Source: Escherichia coli (lineage in GTDB: Bacteria; Pseudomonadota; Gammaproteobacteria; Enterobacterales; Enterobacteriaceae). Taken from it: a stretch of 64,000 bases of DNA. Under the pieces are notes generated by a model. The model worked only from the letters and a program-made list of their open reading frames with translations, searched no databases and was not told the DNA's origin. Made by a program: the position numbers and the translations under genes. Positions 1-19,493 of the stretch are shown here, piece after piece. Location of the stretch: assembly GCF_030013595.1 (NCBI RefSeq), contig NZ_CP122768.1, one strand, 5' to 3'. Positions within the stretch are counted from its first letter, which is position 1; each line of letters starts with the position of its first letter.

Positions 1-1520
1 CTATTTTGTGTGTTATCGTCAAAACTCAACACACCTCGTTTGTTTTCGGTGTTGAAAAGAGTAATGATGCGCCCATCAATAACACCAACAGAAGGTTTAA
101 TTAACGTGGCTTCCGGTGTATCGTGAACAGTCAGATTAACATAAACACTTTTACCAAATTCAACAATAACGTTATCAGTGTAACGCTGATATTTCACATA
201 AATGTCATAGTTATCACCGGATGTATTGACGGCAAATACATCAAAATCTTTGACGGTATTTCGACGATATGCAACTACGTTAAGTCCTTTAGGTCTATCG
301 TTACCACTACGGAGAAGAATTTCTACTACATCAACTTGGTCATATGCCGTAACGTTGTAACCATTACCACCATGAATACGGAAAAACACACTACGCCCGT
401 TTTGTGGAATTGTTGCGGTTGCCAATTTGAAATATGCAGATACGTTTTCGCTAGAATTGGGAACAGACATAACGACGTTTTTAACAAACATCTTATCAAC
501 TTCGGCTTTGGTGTATGCACCAATCTCGCCAGGAGTCGGCTTATCACCTTCGTGATACATCTTATAGCTAAAGTTCTTCTGTCCTTCTCTATCAAAACCA
601 TAGGTTTCAACACGAGATCCACCAGACGCATAACGGAAAGTAAATCCGCGACCGTGAGCTTTACCGGCAGAGTGAGGAACGTTAAGAGTTAGATCCATGA
701 GTCCATCTTGACCATTGGTACGGAAAGCACCAAAGTAGTTAAGATCTCTCGCTGTCTGGTCTTCCAAATAGTTAGCTGTTTTGGTTAACAGATACCCGCC
801 ATGCTTAGTGTTGGTATTCTTCTTGATGTAAAGAGCATCGTTACTACCTTCAATACCATCAATTCGACGGTTAGCGGCTGCGATCGCTGAATCAGTATCA
901 GTTTTGTTTTTGTCAACCTTTGCGTTAATAGCGGTATGGTTGCTATTCACCGTCCCTGTAAGGTTACTGATTTTAGTATCAACATCTTTCTTGTTGTCGG
1001 AAACGACCTTTTCAATCGCTGTTTTGTTAGCTGCAACCGTGCTAGTTAAGCTAGAAATTTTGTTATCTGCATCGGTTTTATTTGCAGTAACAGTTTTAGT
1101 CAAGTTGCTAACGTTGGTGTTAGTGGTATTAACTTTGTTGTTAATCGCGGTGTTATTGTCATTAACCGTCGTGGTTAAAGCTGCGATTTTATTGTCCGCA
1201 TCTCGTTTATTATTTGCTACAGTAGTTTCTATAGCTGATTTGTTAGATGCAACTGTCCCCGTAAGGTTATTGATCTTAGTATCAGCATCGGTTTTATTTG
1301 CCGCGATAGTCGCATCAGTAGTTTTCTTGTTATTGTCTACTTTTGTGTTTAAAGCATTATGACTTTCAGGAGAAACACTTACTTGAACTACTGCGTTATT
1401 TTTATCTTTGGTATAAATTACATGGTCTGCCATCTGAATAGCGATTTCACCGACCTGTAATTGTTCCGGCGTTGGCTTTTTACCAGCCGTCTGTGTGCGT
1501 TTAAATTGGATCGACTGCAT
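1..1520 (-). CDS. Tail fibre / tailspike-like protein, partial (3' end beyond window start); >500 aa in window
   Basis: Hand translation of minus strand from ATG at ~1518-1520 (SD GAGGTG upstream) is open to position 1: MQSIQFKRTQTAGKKPTPEQLQVGEIAIQ..., then ~29-aa periodic repeats (..NKTDADTKI.NLTGTV..), then Gly/aromatic-rich distal region. Not in ORF track because no stop in window. Confidence 0.6.
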   Translation of the reverse strand, partial: MQSIQFKRTQTAGKKPTPEQLQVGEIAIQMADHVIYTKDKNNAVVQVSVSPESHNALNTKVDNNKKTTDATIAANKTDADTKINNLTGTVASNKSAIETTVANNKRDADNKIAALTTTVNDNNTAINNKVNTTNTNVSNLTKTVTANKTDADNKISSLTSTVAANKTAIEKVVSDNKKDVDTKISNLTGTVNSNHTAINAKVDKNKTDTDSAIAAANRRIDGIEGSNDALYIKKNTNTKHGGYLLTKTANYLEDQTARDLNYFGAFRTNGQDGLMDLTLNVPHSAGKAHGRGFTFRYASGGSRVETYGFDREGQKNFSYKMYHEGDKPTPGEIGAYTKAEVDKMFVKNVVMSVPNSSENVSAYFKLATATIPQNGRSVFFRIHGGNGYNVTAYDQVDVVEILLRSGNDRPKGLNVVAYRRNTVKDFDVFAVNTSGDNYDIYVKYQRYTDNVIVEFGKSVYVNLTVHDTPEATLIKPSVGVIDGRIITLFNTENKRGVLSFDDNTQN

Positions 1521-1597
1521 CGAATCACCTCACTATAAAACAGGAATAAGGGAGGCGTTAACCTCCCAACGTTCATGTTTTATTTAGGTACGCAATC

Positions 1598-2431
1598 TTA
1601 ATACTCACCGAAATCGATCCGGTCCGTCTTAGCCACTGCGCCAATTTCGGCTGGCGTAGGCTTCTCGTTTGTTGTATAGACTTTAATCCATTCCGATTTT
1701 CCGTTGTCCTGAATATTTCGTACCCGCAAACGTGGAGCACCGGAAGTATTACACGTTAATTGCCATGCGCCATGCTCATTAGCTTGAAGATGAATTAACG
1801 ATGTATCAGCACCATAAGGGTTAGTGCTAGCCGTTCCTTTGTAGGTTACAAAGCGGTTTCCTGTCAGAGATTCACTATCAATAGGTCCGGTGAATGGGCT
1901 AACGCCTGAGCCTACGCCAAAATCCCCTTGTCGGATGAGTTTTCCCTCGGTCGCTATACCCCTTGCTAGAATCCCGCCATCTGGTTCAAGTTTAAATTCC
2001 AGTGTTACAGCTTTGTTATCACTACCACGGGTTTTATGTGATGTGACGTAAGCATCGAATATACAAAAGTACCCTGTGTTAGCAGCACTATAGCCAGAGT
2101 TCACAACATAGAACATACGGAAGCGTAAAGGTGTTTTATCCTCTACCGCTTTCATCAACATTGCTTGATGTTCGTCATCCAGAACACGGTTTAACGTGAG
2201 TGTCGTCGGTTCCAGTCTACGATAACCAGCAAGTTTCCCCGTAGCGTCCTGATCGTACTCTTCCAGAGTTTCAATCTCTGTGGATTCTGTTAGCGTAGGG
2301 AATGCTGCGACGTTCTCAATAGAACTAAAGCTAGGATCGAAAAAGTCGACCTGATTGTCTAGCTGGTTAGAGATCGACACTTCAACATGCGATCCCGTAA
2401 AAATATCTAAGTTATCTTGTGTAATATTCAT
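1598..2431 (-). CDS. Virion structural protein, 277 aa (putative tail protein)
   Basis: ORF track; ATG with AAGGGG SD; terminator-like hairpin downstream; C-terminal motif KPTPAEIGA echoes KPTPGEIGA in the tail-fibre ORF. Confidence 0.45.
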   Translation of the reverse strand: MNITQDNLDIFTGSHVEVSISNQLDNQVDFFDPSFSSIENVAAFPTLTESTEIETLEEYDQDATGKLAGYRRLEPTTLTLNRVLDDEHQAMLMKAVEDKTPLRFRMFYVVNSGYSAANTGYFCIFDAYVTSHKTRGSDNKAVTLEFKLEPDGGILARGIATEGKLIRQGDFGVGSGVSPFTGPIDSESLTGNRFVTYKGTASTNPYGADTSLIHLQANEHGAWQLTCNTSGAPRLRVRNIQDNGKSEWIKVYTTNEKPTPAEIGAVAKTDRIDFGEY

Positions 2432-2440
2432 TATTACCCC

Positions 2441-2911
2441 TTAAAAACGCGCTAGATAAGAAAATTTAAGGCTAAGTGTCCCAACGATACCCCCATCACT
2501 AGAATCATCGTCATAATCGGTATTAGAAGCTACTGGAGTGATATCTGAAATTGAGAAGCCCAAATCTTTAAAACGTGGGTTATCCGGCTGAATCTGGATT
2601 ATCTGGCAAATACCCTCATGAATTTTGGTTTCATGAATCTGAGAATACAATTGCATTTCGATAACGCATTCAGCTTGCATTGCATTACCGCCACGGACCC
2701 TATTGTAAGTCTCATTCATTCCGGTGATCCAACAAACCACGTCATCACTAAAGCCTTGCTGAGTTTGTTCTACGTTTAAAGCCAGACCTAAATCTTGTTC
2801 GATAATATCCTGCAAGGCGCGTTTGATTTTCAGTCTAGGCATATTATTAACGGTAGCGAGCATGTGTACCCCCTGCCAGAGTGATAAAGCAATCAGTTGT
2901 ATTGTCACCAT
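2441..2911 (-). CDS. Hypothetical virion morphogenesis/neck protein (156 aa as tracked; more likely ~140 aa from ATG at 2863)
   Basis: ORF track; internal ATG at 2861-2863 has a GGGGG SD, first ATG has none; sits in the head-tail module. Confidence 0.4.
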   Translation of the reverse strand: MVTIQLIALSLWQGVHMLATVNNMPRLKIKRALQDIIEQDLGLALNVEQTQQGFSDDVVCWITGMNETYNRVRGGNAMQAECVIEMQLYSQIHETKIHEGICQIIQIQPDNPRFKDLGFSISDITPVASNTDYDDDSSDGGIVGTLSLKFSYLARF

Positions 2912-3137
2912 TGCGCTTAACGTATTGAACTTTGAAACGCTGATTTTCTACAGTGACAATATCACCCTGCTTTAAGTCTCCCTCACGACAAAATAGAAAT
3001 TCTGTCTCTGTCATTACCCCTGATTCGTCGGTAGTAGTAATTTCATGATAAGCACGAATTGATTTACCACCTTCCACCGAAAATACAGGAGCACTTCGGA
3101 ACATTCTTGATAATTGTGATTCTGATAATTTGAACAT
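2847..3137 (-). CDS. Putative head-tail adaptor/joining protein, 96 aa
   Basis: ORF track; AAGGGGG SD; size and position immediately after capsid gene. Confidence 0.35.
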   Translation of the reverse strand: MFKLSESQLSRMFRSAPVFSVEGGKSIRAYHEITTTDESGVMTETEFLFCREGDLKQGDIVTVENQRFKVQYVKRNGDNTTDCFITLAGGTHARYR

Positions 3138-3165
3138 AGTTACCCCCTTTATGGAGTATTTACAT

Positions 3166-3194
3166 ACAAAAAAGCCCCACCGTTAGGCAGGGCT
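3166..3194 (-). terminator. Rho-independent terminator/attenuator after capsid gene
   Basis: Minus-sense hairpin AGCCCTGCCTAACGGTGGGGCT followed by T-run; same hairpin family recurs at 9845-9872 and 16351-16380. Confidence 0.5.
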
Positions 3195-3212
3195 AATTAT
3201 TATTTTGCTTTC

Positions 3213-3232
3213 GGTGGACGTCCCACCTTTTT
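3213..3232 (+). terminator. Plus-strand hairpin plus T-run (antisense terminator)
   Basis: GGTGGACGTCCCACC followed by TTTTT inside a minus-strand operon. Confidence 0.35.
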
Positions 3233-3286
3233 AGCTGTGGCTTTCGCCGTAACTACCGGAATTTCTTCCGGCAATTCTTCGTTATT

Positions 3287-5293
3287 TCACTCTTCGCCAA
3301 TTTTCAGAACTTTCAGAGCTTCCGGCTGTGCTACAACGTAGTCCAAATCTACAAAGATACGAGGCACTACCGCACCACGGTCACGGTATGTAGTTAGATC
3401 CATATCCAGTTCCAGACCGCCCCACTCACCGATGGTAATACCGGAGAAGTCACCCAGAACGATGTGGTCTGCCGGAATAACGCCAGAAGTAACTACTTCG
3501 TAACCAGCCAGTTTGCCGTTTTCGATGATATAACCGGAAACGCCGTTATCTTTCAGGGTAGATTCCAGTTCGGCAGCAGTTGCACCGCTCATTGCAAACT
3601 TGATCGCCTGAGCAGGAACGCCAGCGTCGGTCAGTGCTGCAATTTCTTTCAGGAAGTCTTTATAAGAGAAAGCAGCTTTCTTGGTAACGCGGCTAGCGTC
3701 TACCAGTTGCTTAACCAGACCAGCCGGACCACGAGCATTTTCTTTATCAGACAGAATCAGTTGTTCCAGTTTGATACGAACAGCTTTGTTAATGTGATCA
3801 GTGATCAGGGTAGCGATGCCCGGAACGGTTTTCAGCGACTGACGGCTGATCGGGTTGCCACCAGCAAAAGTTTTCGGAGACAGTTTCACGTTCGCAAATT
3901 CAGCTTTGCTTTCCGGTGCAGCACCGTTTTCATCAACGAAGCCGAAAGCGTCAACGCTGGAAGCGGTCATTTTTGGAATAGCGGTCGGGGAGTTCAAGCC
4001 ACTGTAAACAGTCACACCCAGACGACCCAGACACGAAGCAGGAAGCAGCATTTCGATGTAGGATTCAGTCATCAGTTTTTCGTCAGTGATAGCGGTCAGG
4101 TCGGCTTTGGTGTTACCAGCAGAAGCAGCACGCAGAGCAGCAGCCGGAACGAATACAGAGCCACCACGAGCAGCACGACCACGCTGCATAGTTGCAGTAG
4201 CAGCCATTGCGGAATATTCAGCTTCGTTAGCGCCGAGCACGTCGCCATCTACCAGGGAGCGGATTACGTTATTAAGATCGAAAGTTTTTTCCATGATTTG
4301 TTCCTTATTAATTTGTTCGTTATTACGTTGAGCATTGGTAATGTTATTTAGTGCCTTAGTGCGGAATGCTTCCGGCGTCATGTCTTTAATTGCCAATGCG
4401 CGTGCTAATTCAGAGTCATCAATATTTAGTTCGCGTGCAATTTCGCGAATTTCTAATTCGTCTTCTTCGGAACGTTCAGCCACTTCCTCGGTTTTTTCTT
4501 CTTCAACCGGAGCGGCTTCACGTTCTTCTTTTACTTCTTCTGTTTCCCGAACAGTTGAACTATCATCATCAACACTTTCAGGATGTTCAGCGTCTTTTCC
4601 GTCTTCGAGATTTTCATCTTCTTTATTCTCTTCAACTTGGCGCTCTTGAGTTTCTTCAACTTCCGGTTCTTTATTTTCTTCTACCGGAGTTTCTTCAACC
4701 TGAGCGGCTTCTTGTTCTTCTTTGATTTCTTCGATTTGTTCTTTAGTCATATCGCGTTTAGCCCCCAAATTAACTGTGATAGTATTTAGAGAGCGATTTA
4801 AACCGACCGTATCGTCTGCGGGCACCGACACCCATGAAATCTCGTGAGGAATCCATTTAGAAACAATGAGTTGCGATTTAGCGTAGTCGATGTGATATTC
4901 TTTAATGTCATAACCGACAGAAATTTTTTCCATCGTACCTTCAATGACTTTATTGCGAATATCATTAGCCAAAGTGCCATGCTTAGAGAATCTAACGGTC
5001 GCACGGCCTACGTTATCCGCATCGATTCGAGCGTTACAAACGACACCAATGTGATTATCGAAATTGTGATTGAACAGCAACGGAGCGTTATTATTCAGAC
5101 GAGACAGATCAACCGCTTCCGGTGTATGTACCAGAATTTCATCTAATACCACCATTTCTTGATTTTGCTCATCCCAAAATTGGCGCTGATAAGGCTGTGT
5201 ACTTGAGAAAGCAATTTCAAATTCGTATTGATCGTTATGCCCTTCATTAATAACTCCACCGTAACCGTTAAGATCGCGGCGAAATTTAAGCAT
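3287..5293 (-). CDS. Prohead protease / scaffold-like acidic linker / major capsid protein fusion (HK97-like), 668 aa
   Basis: ORF track; N-terminal ~170 aa protease-like (LLFNHNFDNHIGVV), central Glu/Lys-rich repeat segment, C-terminal ~370 aa capsid-like; SD AAAGGTGA. Confidence 0.7.
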   Translation of the reverse strand: MLKFRRDLNGYGGVINEGHNDQYEFEIAFSSTQPYQRQFWDEQNQEMVVLDEILVHTPEAVDLSRLNNNAPLLFNHNFDNHIGVVCNARIDADNVGRATVRFSKHGTLANDIRNKVIEGTMEKISVGYDIKEYHIDYAKSQLIVSKWIPHEISWVSVPADDTVGLNRSLNTITVNLGAKRDMTKEQIEEIKEEQEAAQVEETPVEENKEPEVEETQERQVEENKEDENLEDGKDAEHPESVDDDSSTVRETEEVKEEREAAPVEEEKTEEVAERSEEDELEIREIARELNIDDSELARALAIKDMTPEAFRTKALNNITNAQRNNEQINKEQIMEKTFDLNNVIRSLVDGDVLGANEAEYSAMAATATMQRGRAARGGSVFVPAAALRAASAGNTKADLTAITDEKLMTESYIEMLLPASCLGRLGVTVYSGLNSPTAIPKMTASSVDAFGFVDENGAAPESKAEFANVKLSPKTFAGGNPISRQSLKTVPGIATLITDHINKAVRIKLEQLILSDKENARGPAGLVKQLVDASRVTKKAAFSYKDFLKEIAALTDAGVPAQAIKFAMSGATAAELESTLKDNGVSGYIIENGKLAGYEVVTSGVIPADHIVLGDFSGITIGEWGGLELDMDLTTYRDRGAVVPRIFVDLDYVVAQPEALKVLKIGEE

Positions 5294-15903: not shown

Positions 15904-16350
15904 TGGTTATCCTCCATTAAATTTGCGTAATTTTATTTATTGGTTTTACGCAAAATCTAAGCGCCTAAATCGCATTCTAACGAAGGGAAAGATCCAGTAA
16001 TGGTAAGGGCTAGGAAGTGGGTTAATAGTCGCGTAGCGACCGCGCTAGGACTGCACTGATCACGTTTTAAAATCTCACACGCACATCAAAAACCGGGGTG
16101 CCGAAAACTCGCTTTATCTGACCCCGATCCAGAACCTAAATCATTTGTCAAGTCTTTCCGATTCAGTAAAGGGGAACATGCATCTAAGCTAGAGAAGCTC
16201 ATAAAGACTAAGTATGAATGCGGTGTTGTTAGTCGGGATGATATGCGAGACGGTTACACTGAAACGCTACCATTTGAAGCATTGCCGGAGATCATCACTA
16301 TCACCAACAAAATGATAAGCGAAAGCATCCTCGTAAGTAATTGATTCCTA

Positions 16351-16380
16351 AGCCCTGTCCTTGTGATGGGGCTTTTTTAT
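16351..16380 (+). terminator. Hairpin plus T-run at the element edge (third member of the AGCCCTG...GGGGCTTTTT family)
   Basis: AGCCCTGTCCTTGTGATGGGGCT followed by TTTTTT. Confidence 0.45.
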
Positions 16381-16394
16381 TGGAAAAATTTTAG

Positions 16395-16724
16395 TTATTG
16401 GGGTTTACAACATTTAGGTTTGCCAATTCGTCTGGCTAACTCTTGCTGAGTGATTTCTGACTGTAAAAAAGCATTTAACAGCAATACCTTAGAGGCGACA
16501 CTCAAAGGCACTTCAATAAAGTGATCGTGACTATTTAATGGCGAAGGTAACGGGATAAGCTCGTTATCTTCAAAATAAAAATCAAATGCGGTCAGTAAAG
16601 CATCTTTTGCCGCTTCCATCGCTTCAGCAACTGTTTCGCCCTGGGTCAACGCTTCAGGGATATCCACAAAAGAAACCATATAACCGCCTTCCGGCGCGGG
16701 TGTAAGAGTGACGGGATAACGCAT
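16395..16724 (-). CDS. hicB: HicB antitoxin, C-terminally truncated at the element junction
   Basis: Matches recalled K-12 HicB from MRYPVTLTPAPEGGYMV.. through ..ARRIGKPK, then 5 non-native codons (CCKPQ) and a stop; C-terminal DNA-binding domain missing. Confidence 0.7.
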   Translation of the reverse strand: MRYPVTLTPAPEGGYMVSFVDIPEALTQGETVAEAMEAAKDALLTAFDFYFEDNELIPLPSPLNSHDHFIEVPLSVASKVLLLNAFLQSEITQQELARRIGKPKCCKPQ

Positions 16725-16769
16725 AATTTCGACTGTCTCTCGCATGTCATTAACCTTTTTAATTGGCGA

Positions 16770-16946
16770 TTAACTCAAACCGAGTTGCTTCAGGATTGCT
16801 TTACGCAATGGTTCTTTAATCTCATCGCAGGGGTGACGCGGCATGACACTGCGCCTCCCGTGAAACCTGAGTTTTAAATGGTTGCTGCCATTCGCTACAT
16901 CGACGCCCTGAGATTCGAGCCAACGTCTGAACTCGCTTTGTTTCAC
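16770..16946 (-). CDS. hicA: HicA mRNA-interferase toxin, 58 aa, GTG start
   Basis: Hand translation VKQSEFRRWLESQGVDVANGSNHLKLRFHGRRSVMPRHPCDEIKEPLRKAILKQLGLS; below the ORF-track size cut-off. Confidence 0.7.
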   Translation of the reverse strand: MKQSEFRRWLESQGVDVANGSNHLKLRFHGRRSVMPRHPCDEIKEPLRKAILKQLGLS

Positions 16947-17167
16947 ATCGCCTCCCTGCCGCTGAGTATATCAACAAAGTAAACATTAGTGTTTACCTCC
17001 GTGTGTAATTTGCTCGAAAATAGCACTAAATCGCCGCAACGGCAGAATGCAATGCAAAATCAGGAAGGAAGATTCCAGAATTTCTTTGCGCTAATTTGCA
17101 AAACTGAATAATAACCTCAAGAAACTATCGGCATCATAGCGGCAAAAGGTGAGAAAAAGGTGGCGGG

Positions 17168-17398
17168 ATGTTTACGAAGGCGTTATCGGTTGTCTTATTA
17201 ACGTGTGCGCTGTTCTCAGGACAACTCATGGCAGGGCACAAAGGACATGAATTTATGTGGGTAAAGAATGTGGATCATCAGCTACGTCATGAAGCGGACA
17301 GCGATGAATTGCGTGCCGTGGCGGAAGAGTCGGCGGAAGGTTTGCGCGAGCATTTTTACTGGCAAAAATCGCGCAAACCAGAAGCGGGACAACGTTGA
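17168..17398 (+). CDS. yncJ: Small secreted protein YncJ, 76 aa
   Basis: ORF track; signal peptide; K-12 position between hicA and ydcP. Confidence 0.6.
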   Translation: MFTKALSVVLLTCALFSGQLMAGHKGHEFMWVKNVDHQLRHEADSDELRAVAEESAEGLREHFYWQKSRKPEAGQR

Positions 17399-17404
17399 GT
17401 CATT

Positions 17405-17445
17405 TATTGCCGGATGCGGCGTGACGCCTTACCCGGCCAACAATA
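17405..17445. repeat. REP element
   Basis: GCCGGATGCGGCGTGACGCCTTACCCGGCC palindromic unit in an intergenic region. Confidence 0.5.
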
Positions 17446-17489
17446 TCATGCAGATTCAATAAGTTGTGAGTAACCAGAAAACTGGCGTT

Positions 17490-19493
17490 TTACCCTTTTC
17501 GCTTCGGCAATGTTTTCAGCAGCTCATCCGGACTTACGGAGGCGACAACACTTCCCGGTAACGGCATTTTCAGAATGTGATTTTTAATTTTGCCGATGAC
17601 GTGCATCTCGCATGGGCGGCAATCAAACTTTAGCGTTAATACTTCATCGCCGTTAACCAGTTGCATTGGCGTCGCCTTCCAGCTTTTGATATTGCCTTTC
17701 GCCTGTTTCGGGCACAGATTGAAGGCAAAGCGCAGACAATGCTTAGTGATCATCACCGGGACTTCGCCCTTCTCTTCATGTGCCTCATACGCCGCGTCAA
17801 TCAGCTGCACACCGTAGCGATGATAAAATTCACGCGCTTTCTGGTTGTATACGTTCGCGAGGAAACTCAGATGCGTTTGCGGATAAACCGGCGCAGGATC
17901 AGCAACCGGTTTACGGCTGCCCCGCTGGTAACCGGCAAGACGTGCAGCATCCAGCATGTCGGCGGCTTCACGGCGGAACTGGTTTAACAGACTGTTTGGT
18001 ACAAACAGCGCACCCGGCAAATTAATTTGCACATCGCGGGCGTAATAGATGGTTTGCCCCAGTTTTGCCAGACCATCCTTTAGATTGTTCATTGCTTTTT
18101 CGGCGTTATTGGCTTCGTCGAACTGCCCGTCCAGCGTATGCATGATGCTGACACCCTCTTCACTGGTGAGGGTCAGAATCAGTTGTTCCTGCCAGCCGCC
18201 CAGTTCAATGTCTACCGCCACCCGACGTTCGCTGGATGTTTTGGTCAGTGCCTGCTGCCAGTTATGATCAAGATTACGGTTTAGTGGGTGATGCGGGCGA
18301 ATTTTGTGCAACTCTGCTGGCATTTCATTGGGCCAGACGCGGTACTGATTTTCTCCGGTTTTCTCGACCGTATTGGCACGAAAGCCGACGACTTCACGTT
18401 TAATCATCACGTTCAGGCCATCGCCATTTGCCAGTGGTTCGGAAACGGCAACATCGAGATGATCTTTCGCCACTTTCAATACTTCACCCACCGGCAGGCC
18501 GATAAATTTCGGCGAATCGAACGCGCCAATATCGCCTTTACGGGCATTCACAAAATAATCTGTGCTACCACGGTGGAAAGTCTTTTCCGTCGATGGAACA
18601 AAGAAATGTTCAGTACGACCTGATGAAGCACGCGTCAGATCGACACGTTCTTCAATAATGGCATCCAGCATCTGGCGATAATGGGCGGTGATATTCTTCA
18701 CGTAGCTCATATCTTTGTAACGCCCTTCAATCTTGAAGGAGCGTACGCCAGCATCAATCAGCGCGCCGAGGTTGGCAGTCTGATCGTTATCTTTCATCGA
18801 CAGCAGATGTTTTTCATAGGAAACCACCCGCCCCTGATCGTCTTTCAATGTGTATGGCAAACGGCACGCCTGCGAGCAATCGCCACGGTTGGCGCTACGC
18901 CCTGTTTGCGCATGAGAAATGTAGCACTGACCCGAATAGGCCACGCACAGTGCGCCATGAATAAAGAATTCAATGGTCGCGTCCGTGGCCTGGTGAATCG
19001 CGCGGATCTGCTCAAGATTCAGTTCTCGCGCCAGCACAATCTGCGTGAAGCCAACATCAGAGAGGAACTTCGCTTTTTCTACTGTACGAATGTCGCACTG
19101 CGTACTGGCGTGCAGTTCAATCGGCGGAATATCAAGTTCCAGAATCCCCATATCCTGAACAATCAGCGCATCGACGCCGGTCTGGTAGAGGTCAGTAATC
19201 AGCCGTTGCGCGGGTTCCAGCTCATCATCATGCAAAATTGTGTTAAGCGTGACGAAAATTTTTGCACCATAACGATGGGCAAACGGCACCAGCTCGGCAA
19301 TATCTTTCAGGCTATTACTGGCATTATGACGGGCACCAAAACCAGGGCCGCCGATATAAACAGCATCGGCACCGTGCAAAATAGCTTCGCGGGCAATGGC
19401 GGCATCGCGTGCCGGACTTAACAGTTCAAGACGATGAGAAGATACAGTCACTTTCTTATCCAGTAGCTGAAAAATGGCGGCTATTTTAGCCAC
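17490..19493 (-). CDS. ydcP: U32-family peptidase-like protein
   Basis: ORF track (667 aa); U32-type motifs; K-12 synteny. Confidence 0.7.
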   Translation of the reverse strand: MAKIAAIFQLLDKKVTVSSHRLELLSPARDAAIAREAILHGADAVYIGGPGFGARHNASNSLKDIAELVPFAHRYGAKIFVTLNTILHDDELEPAQRLITDLYQTGVDALIVQDMGILELDIPPIELHASTQCDIRTVEKAKFLSDVGFTQIVLARELNLEQIRAIHQATDATIEFFIHGALCVAYSGQCYISHAQTGRSANRGDCSQACRLPYTLKDDQGRVVSYEKHLLSMKDNDQTANLGALIDAGVRSFKIEGRYKDMSYVKNITAHYRQMLDAIIEERVDLTRASSGRTEHFFVPSTEKTFHRGSTDYFVNARKGDIGAFDSPKFIGLPVGEVLKVAKDHLDVAVSEPLANGDGLNVMIKREVVGFRANTVEKTGENQYRVWPNEMPAELHKIRPHHPLNRNLDHNWQQALTKTSSERRVAVDIELGGWQEQLILTLTSEEGVSIMHTLDGQFDEANNAEKAMNNLKDGLAKLGQTIYYARDVQINLPGALFVPNSLLNQFRREAADMLDAARLAGYQRGSRKPVADPAPVYPQTHLSFLANVYNQKAREFYHRYGVQLIDAAYEAHEEKGEVPVMITKHCLRFAFNLCPKQAKGNIKSWKATPMQLVNGDEVLTLKFDCRPCEMHVIGKIKNHILKMPLPGSVVASVSPDELLKTLPKRKG

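Follow-up and report, generated by a model that had tools for sequence, protein, structure and literature searches.

We identified at the left end of the window (the whole 64-kb stretch of DNA analyzed here) a phage tail fiber gene on the minus strand that starts with an ATG at 1520, has the sequence GAGGTGA just before it and stays open past the window's left edge, with 506 codons visible (Table 1). The prophage that carries the gene fills the left ~16-17 kb of the window and also encodes a lambda-family portal, a gpA-type terminase, a fused S78 protease and capsid protein, and an FII-like connector. The host DNA is an E. coli chromosome, matched at 99.9% in the hrpA-azoR region. The right boundary of the prophage was placed at ~16000-17500, with chromosomal ORFs from 17490 onward for a U32 peptidase, an HTH-cupin regulator, a DUF3313 protein and, further on, hrpA/azoR. 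Fiber regions of related type were present in 54 of 5,426 complete E. coli genomes, at a top identity of 93.6%. Sequenced phages and plasmids gave no DNA match to the left part of the window, save for the gp37-like half of the fiber, and a nucleotide search of sequenced phages with the rod DNA returned just a 69-nt chance-level match to Klebsiella phage J genes.

Table 1. Domains, repeat units and short direct repeats of the fiber gene, in window positions.
Feature	Position	Strand	Remarks
N-terminal anchor domain, residues 1-50	1371..1520	-	three short beta-strands; gp37 N-terminus homology
Alpha-helical rod, residues 51-225	846..1370	-	AlphaFold2 helix; 48 predicted core layers; ~26 nm if extended
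Repeat array	858-1334	-	four 29-residue units as two pairs, with a 14-residue unit between the pairs
11-residue unit, residues 63-73	1302-1334	-	
18-residue unit, residues 74-91	1248-1301	-	
11-residue unit, residues 92-102	1215-1247	-	
18-residue unit, residues 103-120	1161-1214	-	
11-residue unit, residues 121-131	1128-1160	-	
14-residue unit TTNTNVSNLTKTVT, residues 132-145	1086-1127	-	breaks the 29-residue periodicity
18-residue unit, residues 146-163	1032-1085	-	
11-residue unit, residues 164-174	999-1031	-	
18-residue unit, residues 175-192	945-998	-	
11-residue unit, residues 193-203	912-944	-	
18-residue unit, degenerate, residues 204-221	858-911	-	
gp37-type distal part, residues 243-506	3..794	-	ELT4 gp37 identity; extends past the left window edge
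Deletion junction, sole surviving copy of 16-nt repeat CGGCAAATAAAACCGA	1288..1303	-	comparison with L023
17-nt direct repeat GCAAATAAAACCGATGC, first copy	1285..1301	-	partner 216 nt downstream in the gene
17-nt direct repeat GCAAATAAAACCGATGC, second copy	1069..1085	-	exact match to the first copy

The fiber gene of the relatives has 1091-1203 codons and is followed on its 3' side by genes for a lambda-like tail tube, a Gp38-type adhesin, assembly chaperones, an 809-residue tape measure, Dit and hub. Judged from the tail tube, tape measure, Dit and hub genes downstream in these relatives, the element is a siphovirus-type prophage bearing a T-even-type distal fiber on a coiled-coil stalk. IS2 truncates the fiber gene in strain E275a (L011:5451-6679), and ISKpn26 sits in the connector gene upstream of the fiber in PRO_A-1412-6M-A (L004:1458-2438). 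Just upstream of the fiber in the window, a 277-aa ORF (1598-2431, minus strand) combines an N-terminal tail-tube-like domain (phrog_158, residues 9-154) with ~70 C-terminal residues that are tail-fiber-protein-like and include a KPTPAEIGA motif that the fiber also has; a second tail tube gene (157 aa) lies directly 3' of the fiber in the relatives. The extended tail-tube paralogue might act as a docking ring for the fiber. The protease-capsid gene (3287-5293, minus strand) encodes a 668-aa fusion of a Peptidase_S78 prohead protease (residues 40-162) and a major capsid protein (440-665), the two domains being linked by a long, very acidic Glu/Lys-rich stretch. On the plus strand, a Leu/Val-rich ORF of 152 aa (904-1362) was rejected as an antisense shadow, given that the minus frame runs into a gp37 homologue at 96% identity. 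We are almost certain that this ORF is no gene and arises only from the Asn/Thr/Lys-rich sense repeat.

The first-pass annotation had called the gene a tail fiber, and homology searches bore this out. PHROG long-tail-fiber families matched the protein (phrog_1699, E=9e-31), and BLASTP against gp37 of the T4-like phage ELT4 (Krischvirus/RB49-like) aligned residues 1-51 to 4-54 (37% identity, E=2e-10) and residues 243-506 to 71-334 (96% amino-acid identity). The connector between the two blocks in ELT4 gp37 is only 16 residues long (VYDRDVTMAGKVKGNN), whereas ~190 residues, mostly rod, replace it in the fiber studied here. These alignments indicate that the rod is an insertion in a gp37-type fiber. 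Homology to gp37 covers the N-terminal domain and the shaft, and the Gp38-type adhesin downstream in the relatives is a further likeness. The contiguous gp37 architecture of a T4-like myovirus with gp34-36 is absent, however: the rod intervenes and the neighboring genes are of siphovirus type. The distal part is 78-94% identical at the nucleotide level to RB49-like gp37 genes. Positions 3-794 (minus strand) and gp37 of the virulent phage ELT4 (L028:3279-6047) share 94% nucleotide and 96% amino-acid identity. Such identity between a temperate siphovirus-type prophage and a virulent T4-like phage points to a recent horizontal exchange of the distal fiber module between very different phage types.

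The rod sequence is built from short units whose lengths, read in order from residue 63 to residue 221, are 11, 18, 11, 18, 11, 14, 18, 11, 18, 11 and 18. Self-comparison of the protein peaked at an offset of 29 residues (35.7% identity, mean BLOSUM z=9.7), against a 95th percentile of 3.3 for the maximum z in shuffled controls. Thus, the periodic 29-residue repeats proposed earlier are real at the protein level and number four, but they do not form a simple run: two pairs are separated by a 14-residue unit, and the array spans about 858-1334, somewhat beyond the 920-1345 first assigned to it. The 14-residue unit (TTNTNVSNLTKTVT) looks, from its sequence, like an 18-mer minus its first four residues. 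The arrangement of two pairs around this unit explains why the best DNA copies are spaced at 87 and 216 nt and not at 174 nt.

At the DNA level the periodicity is faint. Self-identity at an offset of 87 nt was 45.7% compared to 35% in codon shuffles (z=4.9), so the proposal of ~87-bp tandem DNA repeats is weakly true, but Tandem Repeats Finder, run on window positions 1-4000 at its lowest threshold (score 30), reported no array in the repeat region. The four 87-nt copies are 51-68% identical in pairwise comparisons, and identical residues shared codons 22 times compared to 23.9 expected from codon usage, with no excess at any offset. A recent duplication of a 72-residue higher-order block was ruled out on the same grounds, synonymous-codon sharing being without excess at any offset. 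No exact in-frame direct repeat is longer than 17 nt (GCAAATAAAACCGATGC), two more than the 15-nt maximum in codon shuffles, and another in-frame deletion, of 216 nt (72 residues), could occur between its two copies. The hallmarks of a minisatellite-like tandem array were not found. The diverged 87-nt copies, the negative Tandem Repeats Finder result and the lack of a codon-sharing excess indicate instead that the periodicity is ancient and maintained by protein-level selection, and that the DNA is not a recently amplified array. We also agree that the locus is not a diversity-generating retroelement as far as it is visible: no prophage ORF of at least 150 aa has a reverse-transcriptase domain (the C-terminal tip of the fiber lies beyond the window), and the rod DNA has no second copy, hence no template repeat, anywhere in the 64-kb window.

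To compare rod lengths across homologues, we read fourteen chromosomal and six metagenomic alleles, out of about 27 related alleles in all, and measured each from Met1 to a conserved RIDxIEG motif. The lengths varied as the first-pass annotation had anticipated, in three classes: 268 residues (14 alleles), 240 residues (6 alleles, with another module set, NKxEAAxxLAxAKxELNQTITSTRD) and 221 residues, the shortest, represented by the window allele only. The search of the 5,426 genomes gave span differences that fit the two longer classes, and no other genome was contiguous across the window's junction. The about 26 other alleles have just two lengths, each common to diverged alleles, and a simple 29-residue length step was found nowhere among the about 27. 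Other fibers keep the N-terminal anchor and carry other rods: L017 and L018 have 22-residue (11+11) units, L016 has a short rod with a pyocin-knob end, and the rod of L015 is longer and repeats 47 nt exactly at an offset of 86 residues. RefSeq calls the L015 fiber (L015:3564-5678) a partial pseudogene without an N-terminus, yet a 704-codon ORF is intact from the ATG at 3564 and encodes the same N-terminal anchor followed by the longer rod, which differs in composition. The fibers vary in length and module content in a few discrete, register-preserving forms and are not a hypervariable minisatellite.

The origin of the shortest form is visible in a comparison with the metagenome allele L023, an allele of the parental type, which has 2 mismatches to the window in the first ~715 nt (~99.7% identity in the flanks) save for a precise in-frame gap of 141 nt. 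The 141 nt missing from the window are flanked in L023 by a 16-nt direct repeat (CGGCAAATAAAACCGA) that encodes A-N-K-T-D/E. The comparison indicates that the window allele, seen in a single assembly, arose recently by deletion between these two short repeats. With only 16 nt of identity, short-homology slippage would be a more plausible route for the 141-nt loss than RecA-dependent recombination. The length variation suggested earlier is borne out by the three length classes and by a repeat-mediated deletion in the window itself, but 'hotspot' overstates it for copies that are old and diverged. The one documented event took out 141 nt between 16-nt repeats and not an 87-bp unit.

These data allowed us to weigh the reading of the region as a fast-evolving contingency locus, in which 87-bp DNA repeats recombine often and switch the length of the fiber within populations. 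The documented deletion, the three length classes among relatives, the 47-nt exact internal duplication in L015 and the true 87-bp tandem arrays that a distant T4-like phage has for the rod's unit are all consistent with it. We nonetheless regard it as unlikely for copies only 51-68% identical and without an excess of synonymous codons, for exact repeats of at most 17 nt, and with Tandem Repeats Finder negative for the parental allele as well as the window; furthermore, the about 26 other alleles in two lengths include none that differs by a simple 29-residue step. It is very unlikely that the 141-nt difference is an assembly or sequencing artifact or that the region is a decaying segment of a pseudogene. 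The deletion allele occurs in the window alone, being absent from the 5,426 complete E. coli genomes and from the species-representative genomes (which lack its junction-specific 32-nt word), and IS-disrupted fibers exist among the relatives (L011, L004). However, repeat collapse needs long, near-identical repeats and the identity here extends over 16 nt only, the gap preserves both frame and register exactly and has its ends at unit boundaries, and the ORF is open over all 506 visible codons with flanks ~99.7% identical to L023.

We examined the structure of the rod in a single-chain (monomer) AlphaFold2 model built from a 23-sequence alignment and read as secondary structure and pLDDT. The model placed beta-strands at 26-29, 34-38 and 44-46 in the small domain (residues 1-50), followed by one unbroken helix from residue 51 to residue 225 (pLDDT 92-99), and its confidence collapsed after residue 226. 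This continuous helix agrees with the suggestion that the repeats form a shaft, whose type had been left unstated; the model favors an alpha-helical coiled coil over a beta-structure. When the sequence is written in rows of 29 residues, columns 2, 6, 10, 13, 17, 20, 24 and 28 are occupied by Asn, Ala, Ile, Leu, Val, Asn, Ile and Val. These core columns are spaced 4,4,3,4,3,4,4,3, so that 8 turns take up 7+11+11 residues; the resulting 3.625 residues per turn lie near the value for an unstrained helix, 3.63 (framework in PMC4786415). When core positions were assigned by dynamic programming, the path ran through the rod with 48 layers at a mean period of 3.617, and its score exceeded that of 1000 out of 1000 shuffles (z=5.6; z=2.8 with Asn penalized as an ordinary polar residue). 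Both a continuous helix and an uninterrupted 3/4 core spacing beyond chance, as expected of an alpha-helical coiled coil, were thus present. Compared to L023, the deletion removes 47 codons (18+11+18 residues), equivalent to 13 core layers or about 7 nm, and leaves the core with 48 of its 61 layers, the register and the mean core period (3.617) being unchanged.

Asparagine occupies 12 of the 48 assigned core positions, each 3 residues after V/I/L/T and 4 before A/I/T in the heuristic register. Among the units harvested, 66 and 72 in number, it was invariant at 29-mer columns 2 and 20. Core layers of the N@d type have been described, as have 18/5 or 11/3 periodicities (PMC4786415), and in the modeled register the Asn layers of the rod may be of the N@d type. 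The rod as a whole is rich in N (17%), T (17%), A (13%), K (11%) and D (9%); at an E+K+R content of 15%, a charged single alpha-helix domain is a poor fit. Searches of the PDB by sequence and profile yielded no real homologue. The best sequence match was the stalk of the NadA autotransporter (4CJD, E=0.012), followed by coronavirus spike HR1, keratin, PspA and fibritin (fibritin E=0.96), all of them alpha-helical coiled coils, although matches this weak could reflect composition alone. The Pfam scan of the visible protein (E<=0.1) returned just a sub-threshold 'Filament' match and no coiled-stalk family. Tail fibers are generally trimeric, and the full-length parental allele contains Gp34_trimer and Peptidase_S74 domains, the latter a trimer-folding chaperone. 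Based on both, the modeled rod is probably a parallel homotrimeric three-helix coiled coil. A beta-structured shaft (a triple beta-helix or a beta-spiral as in the adenovirus fiber or the T4 gp12/gp37 shafts) would suit the abundance of Asn, Thr, Val and Ile, the gp37-like remainder of the protein, gp37 being mostly beta, and a hydrophobicity harmonic that is stronger at 2.245 residues than near 3.6 (power 92, barely above the 99th percentile of shuffles, 88), but is highly improbable in view of the unbroken high-confidence helix, the continuous 3/4 core spacing, PDB matches that are all alpha coiled coils, and only 5 Gly+Pro in 175 rod residues.

How far the repeat unit has spread was assessed with an exhaustive HMMER search, with the rod alone, of 1.84 billion cluster representatives, which retrieved only 45 proteins at E<=1e-3. 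Several of these matches carry the 18-mer N-x-x-D-A-D-x-x-I-x-x-L-x-x-x-V at periods of 18, 29 or 36 residues. One protein (P0016), on a T4-like myovirus contig, adjoins sheath and baseplate genes and has 16 copies at the 29-residue period. Its DNA (L029) holds true 87-bp tandem arrays, one with 4.5 copies at 88% and one with 10.9 copies at 75%. Another (P0018), on a phage contig, lies upstream of XkdX and holin genes. From the sequences retrieved, the 18+11 unit is a small, unnamed phage fiber-rod repeat family outside Pfam, of which the window holds an old and diverged version; the 18+11 unit with the N-x-x-D-A-D-x-x-I motif is specific to these few phage proteins.

In structure, the nearest precedent is the proximal part of the lateral tail fiber LtfA (pb1) of phages T5 and DT57C. 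In DT57C, the N-terminal strands are docked in a collar, and the long helix that starts at residue 40 builds a three-helix coiled coil projecting from the siphovirus tail (PMC10713586). Both proteins begin with ~40-50 residues that include short beta-strands and continue as a long alpha-helix, and the N-terminus of T5 Ltf is likewise repetitive and rich in Ala, Asn, Thr and Lys. T5 Ltf was rejected as a homologue of the anchor and rod because it has no detectable sequence similarity to them (BLASTP E=30), and the precedent is therefore one of analogy and not of membership. Furthermore, the anchor of the prophage fiber is homologous to the gp37 N-terminus, unlike that of LtfA, and an LtfC-like collar gene was not identified. 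T5 ltf (L027:10157-11056, minus strand) has its own series of A-A-K-T-S-E-T-N-A motifs after a ~40-residue anchor. The comparison suggests that repeat-built helical stalks evolved independently in lateral fibers.

Stalks with N@d layers are known from the trimeric autotransporters NadA, SadA and UpaG (Hartmann et al., 2009, as cited in PMC4786415). Like the rod, these stalks are rich in Asn, Lys, Ala, Asp and Ile, have an aliphatic core residue three positions before each such Asn and another four positions after it, mix heptads with hendecads and vary in length. The prophage protein is, however, a phage fiber in a tail module: it has no YadA-type or other autotransporter anchor, head or neck domains and no match to the Pfam stalk families, and its weak likeness to NadA (E=0.012) may be convergent. 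Coiled coils are represented among phage fibers by the RBPseg classes TC3/4/9/16 (PMC12143355). T4 fibritin and the P22 gp26 needle are trimeric alpha-helical spacer shafts of variable length, as proposed for the rod, but the sequence likeness is limited to coiled-coil texture (fibritin E=0.96). A 29-residue super-period in an alpha-helical coiled coil is known from SF-assemblin and beta-giardin, segmented coiled coils with 29-residue repeats (PMC2119799). Their repeat consists of four heptads and one skip residue, arithmetically 7+11+11. SF-assemblin is a eukaryotic cytoskeletal protein of unrelated sequence and no phage fiber.

The periodicity, the predicted helix, the architecture of an insertion, the classes of alleles and the junction of the deletion were observed directly, and we favor as their probable explanation a coiled-coil spacer shaft in the long tail fiber of a siphovirus-type prophage, with the window allele as a 47-residue deletion form. 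Each chain would contribute a single alpha-helix of ~175 residues, packed as a nearly straight, parallel three-helix coiled coil in a presumed homotrimer. The 29-residue period would be the coiled-coil register itself (7+11+11, with 8 core positions at 3.62 residues per turn), including two asparagine core layers per unit (V-x-x-N-x-x-x-A/I) that would resemble the N@d layers in the stalks of trimeric autotransporters. With a gp37-type attachment domain on its N-terminal side and a distal, receptor-binding part of gp37 type on the other, the rod may serve as a spacer that contributes reach and stiffness, not specificity. Its length would change only in blocks that preserve the register, as when the window allele presumably derived from a 268-class allele by losing 47 residues between the two 16-nt direct repeats at unit boundaries, with short-homology slippage as the most likely route.

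Coiled-coil shafts and mosaic fibers are well known, and an ordinary kind of fiber shaft such as this changes no general view. The description of the rod helps annotate 'tail fiber domain-containing' prophage genes and, now that block sizes that keep the helix register are known, could guide fiber-length engineering in phage therapy or tailocin work. We consider it quite a long shot that rod length is a selected, quantized, block-wise adjustable parameter of host range. If so, the short conserved DNA words (GCAAATAAAACCGA, encoding A-N-K-T-D) at unit boundaries would be built-in sites for in-frame deletion and duplication, a prophage population would resize its fiber by whole coiled-coil blocks (of 47 or 72 residues, for example) to fit the thickness of the O-antigen or capsule, and the 18+11 N-x-x-D-A-D-x-x-I unit would be a dedicated fiber-rod module common to very different phages. 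On the explanation we favor, a coiled-coil spacer shaft, a T4-type distal fiber would have been adapted to a temperate siphovirus by a register-perfect coiled-coil spacer, of which the window provides a natural allele 13 layers (about 7 nm) shorter.
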